NCBI RefSeq assembly: GCF_003991155.1
Contig: NZ_CP031293.1
DNA: 64,000 nt
DNA from: Escherichia coli
GTDB lineage: Bacteria > Pseudomonadota > Gammaproteobacteria > Enterobacterales > Enterobacteriaceae
Direction: 5' to 3' (one strand)
The notes under the pieces were generated by a model. The model did not search any database. It had not been told where the DNA came from and saw only the letters and a program-made list of their open reading frames with translations. The first letter of the stretch is position 1; the number at the start of each line of letters is the position of its first letter. The position numbers and the translations under genes were made by a program. Of the stretch, positions 3,011 to 6,849 are shown in pieces.

Positions 3011-3844
3011 ATGGATAATGCTGTTGATCGCCACGTTTTTTATATTTCTGATGGTACGGCAATAACTGCGGAGGTATTAGGACACGCAGTAATGTCACAA
3101 TTTCCCGTCACTATCAGCAGCATTACGCTGCCGTTTGTCGAAAATGAGAGCCGTGCACGGGCAGTGAAGGATCAGATTGACGCAATTTATCACCAGACAG
3201 GTGTGCGCCCGCTGGTCTTCTACTCCATCGTGTTGCCGGAGATTCGCGCCATCATCTTGCAAAGTGAGGGCTTTTGCCAGGATATCGTTCAGGCGCTGGT
3301 TGCCCCGCTACAACAAGAGATGAAACTGGATCCCACGCCGATTGCTCATCGTACCCATGGCCTGAACCCTAATAACCTCAATAAATATGATGCGCGTATT
3401 GCGGCGATTGATTACACCCTTGCCCATGACGACGGCATTTCGTTGCGCAATCTGGACCAGGCTCAGGTGATCCTGCTCGGTGTTTCTCGCTGTGGTAAAA
3501 CCCCCACCAGTCTGTATCTGGCAATGCAATTTGGTATCCGCGCGGCAAACTACCCCTTTATTGCCGACGATATGGATAATCTGGTGCTACCCGCGTCGCT
3601 CAAACCGCTTCAGCACAAATTGTTCGGCCTGACTATCGACCCGGAACGTCTGGCGGCGATTCGCGAGGAACGTCGGGAGAACAGTCGCTATGCCTCGCTT
3701 CGTCAGTGCAGGATGGAAGTCGCGGAAGTGGAAGCGTTGTACCGTAAAAATCAGATCCCGTGGATTAACAGTACCAATTATTCGGTAGAAGAGATTGCCA
3801 CCAAGATCCTCGATATCATGGGCCTTAGCCGCCGAATGTACTAG
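3011..3844 (+). CDS. ppsR: PEP synthase regulatory protein (bifunctional kinase/pyrophosphorylase)
   Basis: 277-aa ORF with P-loop-like [11 protein letters not shown]; divergent partner of ppsA. Confidence 0.9.
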
Positions 3845-3855
3845 AAAACTAGTGC
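3838..3855. promoter_or_regulatory. TrpR operator of aroH
   Basis: gtactagaaaactagtgc is a near-perfect palindrome matching the Trp operator family (GTACTAG..CTAGT.C); overlaps the ppsR stop codon. Confidence 0.6.
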
Positions 3856-4000
3856 ATTGGCTTGCTTTTTTGTTATCATGCTAACCACCCGGCGAGGTGT
3901 GACACACCTCGCACTTGAAATCAGCTGCGATTGGTTTATCGTGATGCGCATCACTTCCCGGTAGTCCTGCCGTAGAAGCAACAAATTTCTGAGACTTGTA

Positions 4001-5047
4001 ATGAACAGAACTGACGAACTCCGTACTGCGCGTATTGAGAGCCTGGTAACGCCCGCCGAACTCGCGCTACGGTATCCCGTAACGCCTGGCGTCGCCACCC
4101 ATGTCACCGACTCCCGCCGCAGAATTGAAAAAATACTGAATGGTGAAGATAAGCGACTGTTGGTCATTATTGGCCCCTGCTCGATCCACGATCTCACCGC
4201 TGCAATGGAGTACGCCACCCGTCTGCAGTCGCTGCGCAACCAGTACCAGTCACGGCTGGAAATCGTAATGCGCACCTATTTTGAAAAACCACGAACTGTT
4301 GTCGGCTGGAAAGGACTCATCTCCGATCCAGATTTAAACGGTAGCTATCGGGTAAATCACGGTCTGGAGCTGGCGCGCAAATTACTTTTACAGGTAAATG
4401 AGCTGGGCGTCCCTACCGCGACTGAGTTCCTCGATATGGTGACCGGTCAGTTTATTGCTGATTTAATCAGTTGGGGCGCGATTGGCGCTCGTACTACCGA
4501 AAGTCAGATCCACCGCGAAATGGCTTCAGCACTCTCCTGTCCGGTAGGTTTTAAAAATGGTACCGATGGCAACACGCGGATTGCCGTGGATGCTATCCGC
4601 GCAGCCCGCGCCAGCCATATGTTCCTCTCACCAGACAAAAACGGTCAGATGACCATCTATCAGACCAGTGGCAACCCGTATGGCCATATTATTATGCGTG
4701 GCGGCAAAAAACCGAATTACCATGCCGATGATATCGCTGCAGCCTGCGATACGCTGCACGAGTTTGATTTACCTGAACATCTGGTGGTGGATTTCAGCCA
4801 CGGTAACTGCCAGAAGCAGCACCGTCGCCAGTTAGAAGTTTGTGAGGATATTTGTCAGCAAATCCGCAATGGCTCTACGGCGATTGCTGGAATTATGGCG
4901 GAAAGTTTCCTGCGCGAAGGAACGCAAAAAATCGTCGGCGGTCAGCCGCTCACTTACGGTCAATCGATTACCGACCCGTGTCTGGGCTGGGAAGATACCG
5001 AACGCCTGGTCGAAAAACTCGCCTCTGCGGTTGATACCCGCTTCTGA
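4001..5047 (+). CDS. aroH: DAHP synthase, Trp-sensitive
   Basis: 348-aa ORF; DAHP synthase class I sequence; preceded by TrpR operator. Confidence 0.93.
   Translation: MNRTDELRTARIESLVTPAELALRYPVTPGVATHVTDSRRRIEKILNGEDKRLLVIIGPCSIHDLTAAMEYATRLQSLRNQYQSRLEIVMRTYFEKPRTVVGWKGLISDPDLNGSYRVNHGLELARKLLLQVNELGVPTATEFLDMVTGQFIADLISWGAIGARTTESQIHREMASALSCPVGFKNGTDGNTRIAVDAIRAARASHMFLSPDKNGQMTIYQTSGNPYGHIIMRGGKKPNYHADDIAAACDTLHEFDLPEHLVVDFSHGNCQKQHRRQLEVCEDICQQIRNGSTAIAGIMAESFLREGTQKIVGGQPLTYGQSITDPCLGWEDTERLVEKLASAVDTRF

Positions 5048-5373: not shown

Positions 5374-6849
<1,476 letters not shown>

Follow-up and report, generated by a model that had tools for sequence, protein, structure and literature searches.

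Among the operators recognized by the Trp repressor TrpR, whose gene trpR is a core gene of Escherichia coli, trpO overlaps the -10 region of the trp promoter and is supplemented by attenuation that involves the leader peptide trpL. In the regulation of mtr and aroL, TyrR takes part together with TrpR. The aroH operator of E. coli K-12 is reportedly described in Zurawski 1981, Grove and Gunsalus 1987 and Kumamoto 1987, and the control of aroH by TrpR is said to be the subject of Kumamoto 1987, Klig 1988 and Grove and Gunsalus 1987. A second aroH promoter was reportedly treated by Hudson, Rellos and Davidson (Hudson 1991). The aroH operator is already known, a textbook regulatory site. TrpR negatively regulates aroH (PMC5343134), and the TrpR-aroH interaction is limited to bacteria closely related to E. 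coli (PMC5343134).

The ppsR-aroH locus and its palindrome

The window, that is the whole stretch of 64 kb that was analysed, is E. coli DNA: the 401 bases around the palindrome discussed here match E. coli 2016C-3878 without a difference (100%), and of 5426 complete E. coli genomes 5422 carry the region with at least 95% identity (97% in the lowest-ranked match listed). In the RefSeq annotation of matching E. coli genomes ppsR is followed by aroH. Here ppsR (ydiA; positions 3011-3844, plus strand) is an open reading frame of 277 aa that matches the NCBIfam PpsR equivalog with 430.6 bits and is annotated as such by RefSeq in identical DNA. The gene of the tryptophan-sensitive DAHP synthase, aroH (4001-5047, plus strand), is an open reading frame of 348 aa, supported by the NCBIfam Trp-sensitive AroH model (701.7 bits) and by RefSeq. 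The list of open reading frames also gives ppsA (301-2679) and selO (5374-6810), both on the minus strand. The K-12 MG1655 counterparts of ppsR and aroH lie at 1787445-1788278 and 1788435-1789481, with 98% identity over the aligned region; trpR, which is annotated in K-12, lies outside the 64-kb window.

At 3838-3855, read on the plus strand, is the palindrome GTACTAGAAAACTAGTGC, with the core GTACTAG-AAAA-CTAGTGC. Its 7-bp arms are complementary save for one T/G position, its 4-bp centre AAAA is asymmetric, and flanking AT...AT widens the symmetry to ATGTACTAG/CTAGTGCAT at 3836-3857; at its fullest the symmetry covers 3835-3858. The original prediction had placed a near-perfect palindrome of the Trp-operator type at 3836-3857, and this was borne out: the sequence has one mismatch to the symmetric TrpR consensus GTACTAG-N4-CTAGTAC, the next best site in the 64 kb having four, and GTACTAGAAAACTAGTGC is single copy in the window even when three mismatches are allowed (0.02 copies expected from dinucleotide shuffles). 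Its two GNACT half-sites are inverted, AG follows each of them to give the CTAG steps, and 4 bp separate the two CTAGs. An overlap with the ppsR stop codon, also claimed, was found as well, since the stop codon TAG (3842-3844, plus strand) lies within the left arm: ppsR ends with the codons ATG TAC TAG, of which the Tyr codon and the stop (TAC TAG) make up the left half-site. The distance to aroH, given beforehand as about 145 bp, is 145 nt from the end of the palindrome to the ATG at 4001.

K-12 MG1655 shares 17 of the 18 bases; at the corresponding place between ppsR and aroH it carries GTACTAGAGAACTAGTGC, which we take to be the classical, experimentally defined aroH operator. The best consensus sites upstream of K-12 trpL, aroH, mtr, trpR and aroL have 1, 1, 2, 3 and 3 mismatches, respectively, and are presumably the classical operators of these genes. 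On the basis of the consensus match and of this orthology, we are close to certain that the palindrome at 3838-3855 is the long known TrpR operator of E. coli aroH. The identity that had been proposed for it from the letters is in this way supported, TrpR control of aroH being recorded in PMC5343134.

The allele in the window is an uncommon one. It has in common with the K-12 operator the locus, the distances to the two genes and 17 of 18 bases, and the promoter elements are identical apart from single-nucleotide differences in the spacer. At the central position 3846 the window has A where K-12 has G, by which the internal GAACT of K-12 becomes AAACT; in the flank, at 3859, a G stands in place of the A of K-12, turning TTAG into TTGG. 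As a result of these two changes a second TrpR site, staggered by 8 bp, is a poorer match in this DNA, with 7 mismatches (counted by eye) against 5 in K-12. Of 5420 E. coli genomes, 43 have a 41-nt haplotype identical to that of the window and 2038 have the K-12 type; these 41-mer haplotype counts set only a bound on the frequency of the G-to-A change at 3846.

Conservation across the Enterobacterales

A comparative scan with one genome per species possessing AroH returned 80 loci. The ppsR-aroH synteny was found throughout the Enterobacterales. Of the 25 loci of Enterobacteriaceae type, 24 have the operator, with 0-2 mismatches or, in Mangrovibacter, 3; in Enterobacter sp. BIGb0383 the right arm is missing. 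The site is present in Escherichia, Citrobacter, Enterobacter, Pseudocitrobacter, Pluralibacter, Kosakonia, Cedecea, Shimwellia, Phytobacter, Siccibacter and relatives, its commonest form outside Escherichia being GTACTAA...CTAGTAC, in which the ppsR stop codon is TAA. Judging from these loci, the overlap of operator and stop codon is conserved across the Enterobacteriaceae. Hafnia, Edwardsiella and Budvicia have weaker operator candidates. In the same 80-locus scan no operator was found in Yersinia, Serratia, Rahnella, Rouxiella, Erwinia and Pantoea, nor in Proteus, Providencia, Photorhabdus, Xenorhabdus and Arsenophonus, all of which keep the synteny. The loci of Vibrio, Photobacterium and Aeromonas have no ppsR beside aroH and, save one exception with 3 mismatches, no comparable site. 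The loss of the operator outside the family despite the conserved synteny agrees with the restriction of the aroH interaction to close relatives reported in PMC5343134.

We expressed conservation as the fraction of bases identical to the window over 23 aligned sequences, a set from which E. coli K-12, E. coli SCPM and Mangrovibacter were left out. In a diverged spacer the operator arms, the -10 element of the upstream promoter aroHp1, the hexamers of the downstream promoter aroHp2 and the arms of a CRP site (CRP-1; promoters and CRP site are treated below) stand out as islands. The left operator arm reaches 0.88 and the right one 0.78, the aroHp1 spacer 0.39 and the aroHp1 -10 element 0.75; the values for aroHp2 are 0.88 (-35) and 0.86 (-10). 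This pattern supports a functional DNA site at the palindrome.

The left arm is within coding sequence, and its conservation of 0.88 could have another origin, since ppsR ends with ATG TAC TAA or ATG TAC TAG in most of the 25 aligned sequences of Enterobacteriaceae type (with TGA in two). One could then suppose that the palindrome is non-functional, the left arm being kept only as the C-terminus of PpsR (Met-Tyr-stop) and the right arm being a chance match. We give practically no credence to this explanation: the right arm CTAGT(A/G)C is non-coding and yet conserved at 0.78, beside a spacer at 0.39; Enterobacter sp. ENT03 has a complete operator about 20 bp past the ppsR stop; the chance expectation for such a palindrome in the window is only 0.02; and the orthologous site of K-12 is taken to be the experimentally defined operator.

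Two promoters upstream of aroH

The promoter names aroHp1 and aroHp2, together with guide RNAs at stated distances from the two starts, are given in the supplementary table of a CRISPRa study (bioRxiv 10.1101/2022.07.14.500123). Four of these guides could be mapped onto the window and put the start of aroHp1 at 3883/3884 and that of aroHp2 at 3949/3950. The aroHp1 start, back-calculated in this way from the guide offsets to within 1 nt (plus strand), is preceded by an extended -10 element, TGtTATCAT (3871-3879, plus strand; hexamer 3874-3879), which we read from the letters and whose hexamer is conserved at 0.75 and keeps a fixed distance to the operator. A weak -35 region at about 3850-3856 (plus strand) falls on the right operator arm and agrees with the consensus at 2 of 6 positions; because of this poor match aroHp1 was not called by a sigma-70 consensus scan of 3700-4100. 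Relative to the aroHp1 start, the operator is centred at about -37.5 and spans about -46 to -29, and so overlaps the predicted core promoter aroHp1 of the tryptophan-sensitive aroH. This agrees with the known overlap of the aroH operator with the -35 region.

According to this arrangement, when tryptophan is plentiful the TrpR dimer with bound L-tryptophan would occupy the two inverted GNACT/CTAG half-sites and, since the operator covers about -46 to -29, would sterically exclude RNA polymerase from aroHp1, so that less tryptophan-sensitive DAHP synthase would be made.

The downstream promoter aroHp2 (3915-3942, plus strand) consists of TTGAAA (3915-3920), a 16-bp spacer and TATCGT (3937-3942), and is the sole sigma-70 consensus match in 3700-4100. 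Its start at 3950 (plus strand), with a leader of 51 nt, is given both by the guide offsets and by Kim et al. 2012 (PMC3415461), who map a start at 1786408 (U00096.2), 51 nt before aroH, with 414 reads (PMC3415461), from primary-transcript enriched RNA of cells in glucose M9 (PMC3415461, supplementary file 2). It lies 66 bp downstream of the aroHp1 start and about 103 bp from the operator centre. In glucose minimal medium it is the only start listed for aroH (PMC3415461), and in that work a second start is listed only if it reaches at least 50% of the strongest; aroHp1, being unlisted, therefore has less than half of the aroHp2 signal in glucose M9. The TrpR-controlled promoter may thus be the minor one in glucose minimal medium, and aroHp2 probably supplies expression that would not be directly blocked by TrpR. 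The promoter aroHp2 is already on record, through the EcoCyc promoter names and the start map of Kim 2012. The portion of the Ettwiller 2016 start-site supplement that we could consult has no coordinates near the aroH locus, and the accessible portion of the Kim 2012 supplement has no Klebsiella aroH start, only a match in the orthologue table.

These two starts decide several points of the original prediction. It had foreseen a leader of roughly 140 nt, which was not borne out: the leaders measure about 117 nt from aroHp1 and 51 nt from aroHp2, the former falling short of 140 nt because the operator lies over the -35 region and not at the start point. A start mapped far from the palindrome would speak against the operator; that of aroHp1 is near, and the claim stands. 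Only the aroHp2 start, for which the operator is at about -103, lies far from it. Of the view that operator and promoter elements are embedded in the 3' end of ppsR, the part concerning the left half-site is correct, while the -35 region, the spacer and the -10 element of aroHp1 are downstream of the stop codon.

CRP sites at aroHp2

A CRP ChIP-seq peak of ETEC H10407 was assigned to aroH, with the MEME sites AGTGATGCGCATCACG and TGCGAGGTGTGTCACA (PMC4287617, Table 1). Both are present in the window as their reverse complements, without an assigned strand. CRP site 1, cGTGAT-GCGC-ATCACt (3940-3955; AGTGATGCGCATCACG), has 2 mismatches to TGTGA-N6-TCACA, and CRP site 2, TGTGACACACCTCGCA (3898-3913; TGCGAGGTGTGTCACA), has 1. 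The centre of site 1 is at -2.5 of aroHp2 and +64.5 of aroHp1, that of site 2 at -44.5 of aroHp2 and +22.5 of aroHp1, so that CRP bound in vivo would lie in one case across the aroHp2 start and in the other against its -35 hexamer, which site 2 abuts. Among the 23 aligned sequences the arms of site 1 are conserved at 0.97 and 0.98 around a variable centre (0.71). The CRP pattern as such is not enriched in the window, with 21 occurrences found against 25 expected.

The locus resembles the other CRP ChIP-seq targets (Haycocks 2015) in having two 16-bp matches to TGTGA-N6-TCACA, here 42 bp apart, under an in-vivo peak. Compared with activating CRP sites, on the other hand, the positions are atypical, and repression or modulation of aroH by CRP would seem as likely as activation; no functional study of CRP action at aroH was found in the literature.

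Two other identities were considered for this sequence. An FNR site, considered on account of the related motif TTGAT-N4-ATCAA, was rejected, since CRP is favoured both by the G with which the arm begins and by the ChIP data for CRP. The reading of GTGAT-N4-ATCAC as an RNA hairpin was set aside, since it is the core of the CRP consensus and lies under the CRP ChIP-seq peak; covariation is uninformative for it because the arms are invariant. Site 2, for its part, lies inside an inverted repeat with a 9-bp stem (3892-3912), which appears as a hairpin in the leader fold.

Contents of the aroH leader

Between the palindrome and the aroH ATG there are 145 nt, with conserved blocks and two hairpins, which is what one could expect if the operator marked the start region and were followed by a single leader of about 140 nt carrying an attenuator or a riboswitch. 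This possibility was evaluated at the RNA level. The leader has no match in Rfam even at E = 10, the terminator scan gave no terminator-like site within 3884-4000, and no TGG (Trp) codon is found in its short reading frames. Secondary-structure prediction, which had been suggested as a check, gave leader folds no more stable than shuffled sequences (z -0.50 and -0.12). There is accordingly neither an attenuator nor a riboswitch nor a Trp-codon leader peptide by the features searched for. Moreover the starts at about 3884 and 3950, with leaders of about 117 and 51 nt, contradict a leader of about 140 nt, and the blocks of conservation fall on the promoter hexamers, on the CRP palindrome (fixed arms, variable centre) and on the ribosome-binding site, a Shine-Dalgarno-like GAGA (3991-3994, plus strand) within a conserved TCTGAGA, 6 nt before the ATG and conserved at 0.95. 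A leader RNA device following the operator is in our opinion very improbable. The conserved part of what had been taken for a leader is instead a second promoter with CRP sites, both on record; of the further regulation that had been anticipated there, the second promoter and in-vivo CRP binding were found, and an RNA device was not.

A hairpin common to both aroH transcripts, CUUC.CGGUA....UGCCG..GAAG, was obtained from the folds at 3954-3978 (plus strand), in the 5'-UTR. Over 23 distinct sequences 92.9% of its cells are paired, against 30-65% in slid controls, and three pairs are changed on both sides; this gives modest support to a putative conserved 5'-UTR hairpin.

A possible terminator of ppsR

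The palindrome might have an additional role, which does not exclude its role as operator. A terminator-like element, recognized by the terminator scan and by RNA folding, extends over 3827-3871 (plus strand): a hairpin at 3827-3866, whose core is made of the operator arms, leads into six U residues at 3866-3871. It is conceivable, though on balance doubtful, that the palindrome is also the core of an intrinsic terminator ending the ppsR transcript just past its stop codon. In support of this, the scan flags exactly this palindrome (one site in 3700-4100 against 0.4 expected), and the hairpin has -19.0 kcal/mol and a z of -3.96, with 0 of 200 shuffles as stable. The same hairpin and U-run occur in K-12 (-13.7 kcal/mol, z -2.2) and in Citrobacter youngae (-17.6 kcal/mol, z -2.75), with different outer stems: AGC/GCU here, GAAUCG/CGAUUU in Citrobacter and AGU/AUU in K-12, the last paired by eye and not drawn in the computed minimum-free-energy fold. 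Four differences from K-12, at 3829, 3859, 3864 and 3865, extend the RNA stem and bring it from -13.7 to -19 kcal/mol (folds compared by eye). In E. albertii hairpin and U-tract are weaker.

Several observations weigh against a terminator. A transcribed palindromic operator always folds, the T-run doubles as the aroHp1 spacer, and there are no more than 3 G-C pairs in the core stem. Enterobacter, Pseudocitrobacter, Pluralibacter and Kosakonia lack the U-run and the extended stem and still have conserved operator arms; since the arms are kept where the extended stem and the U-run are lost, conservation tracks the DNA site and not a terminator. The 3'-end list of Adams 2021 contains no sense-strand ppsR end and no aroH entry. 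As for the alleles by which the haplotypes differ, they are 35 bp apart, and linkage alone could explain their co-occurrence.

If the terminator were real, it would insulate aroH from ppsR read-through, and the terminating ribosome could modulate the formation of the hairpin, because the stop codon is within the left arm. The more extended proposal, that in Escherichia and Citrobacter the approximately 45 bp of 3827-3871 carry four overlapping signals (the stop codon, the terminator stem and U-tract, the TrpR operator, and the aroHp1 -35 region and spacer), we consider rather unlikely. Were it true, ppsR translation or read-through and the occupancy by TrpR could influence each other, and the rare allele of the window would shift the balance, with a stronger RNA stem and a weaker staggered TrpR half-site.

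Comparison with known TrpR operators

The identification of the palindrome as the TrpR operator of aroH has its value as a positive control, a real operator having been recognized from sequence alone. What is added is that aroH has a promoter besides the one linked to the operator, and that the latter may not be the principal one; the known picture of aroH control is unchanged by these details.

Compared with the other members of the TrpR regulon, the aroH site resembles trpO (K-12 GTACTAGTTAACTAGTTC), which is bound by the same repressor, has the same half-site architecture with 1 consensus mismatch, and is likewise accompanied by another match at an 8-bp stagger. Unlike trpO, the operator of aroH is placed on the -35 region, the aroH leader is without an attenuator and a second promoter is found downstream. 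The operators of trpR, mtr and aroL, also of the TrpR regulon, have a recognizable GTAC...GTAC symmetry but are more degenerate, with 2-3 mismatches, the CTAG steps being changed to CTCT/CGAG, CCAG/CGAG or CTAG/ATGG. The aroH site is therefore, jointly with trpO, the best consensus match of the TrpR regulon.

Operator region and the end of ppsR

The TrpR operator (3838-3855) overlaps the ppsR stop codon, and in this strain the region 3826-3866 carries a rare haplotype. Among 5420 complete E. coli genomes, 43 share it exactly and 2038 have the K-12-type haplotype. The haplotype differences fall at 3846, which is the operator centre, at 3859, in a staggered TrpR half-site, and at 3829, 3864 and 3865, which belong to the outer stem of an RNA structure. 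At this end of ppsR the palindrome and its flanks (3827-3871) are predicted to form a terminator-like RNA hairpin of -19 kcal/mol (z -3.96) that leads into U6. Hairpin and U-run are common to K-12 and Citrobacter youngae, weaker in E. albertii and absent in the remaining genera compared. Within ppsR itself, the 3'-end list of Adams 2021 includes a strong antisense 3' end at K-12 position 1787648, minus strand, equivalent to about 3214 in the window.

The arrangement of the operator varies among relatives, whose aroH loci are cited by their number and in their own coordinates. In Enterobacter sp. ENT03 (L013, ~1815-1860) the full operator GAACTAGTAAGCTAGTAC lies about 20 bp past the ppsR stop, and the end of ppsR is still ATGTACTAA; operator and stop codon therefore overlap usually, but not obligatorily. 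In Enterobacter sp. BIGb0383 (L020, ~1852-1870) ppsR terminates ATG TAC TGA and the operator has no right arm (GTACTGAAATCCCGGTTT, 6 mismatches), with the aroHp2 and CRP block kept whole; this locus appears to have lost the TrpR operator naturally. The TrpR-like sites of Hafnia and Edwardsiella (L022, L047, L049), at -134/-136, and of Budvicia (L033, L038), at -211, are weaker (2-3 mismatches, as in GTACTAGTAAAAAAGTAC), stand at different distances from aroH and are clear of the ppsR stop. These may be independent or degenerate operators.

Conservation of the second promoter and CRP sites

Conservation in the ppsR-aroH spacer peaks at 3915-3955 and not at the operator. This block contains the promoter aroHp2 (TTGAAA-16-TATCGT, start 3950) and, overlapping it, a near-consensus CRP palindrome, GTGAT-N4-ATCAC. 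Directly upstream of the -10 hexamer, and extending into it, the stretch GATTGGTTTA (3929-3938) is nearly invariant between genera (0.8-1.0 per position), a conservation that exceeds the need of a promoter spacer; possible readings are the A/T-rich flank of CRP site 1 (3940-3955) or a site for another protein.

The more upstream CRP site 2 (3898-3913) varies in the cross-genus alignment. At the equivalent position several genera have a CRP-like site stronger than that of E. coli, with T(G/T)TGATG(C/T)(G/A)CATCAC in Escherichia sp. ESNIH1, Enterobacter sp. ENT03 and Pluralibacter, and in Enterobacter cloacae and E. asburiae a GC-rich hairpin replaces it. The spacer of Citrobacter youngae (L040, ~1870-2000) is shorter by about 30 bp; in the alignment it has neither the inverted repeat that contains CRP site 2 nor the -35 hexamer of aroHp2, but it retains the operator, the aroHp1 -10 and CRP site 1.

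We found no study in the literature on the functional effect of CRP at the aroHp2 region. Both aroHp2 and the CRP palindrome are already on record: the promoter in the start-site map of Kim 2012 and, as its title indicates, a second aroH promoter in Hudson 1991, and CRP at aroH in the CRP ChIP-seq of Haycocks 2015.
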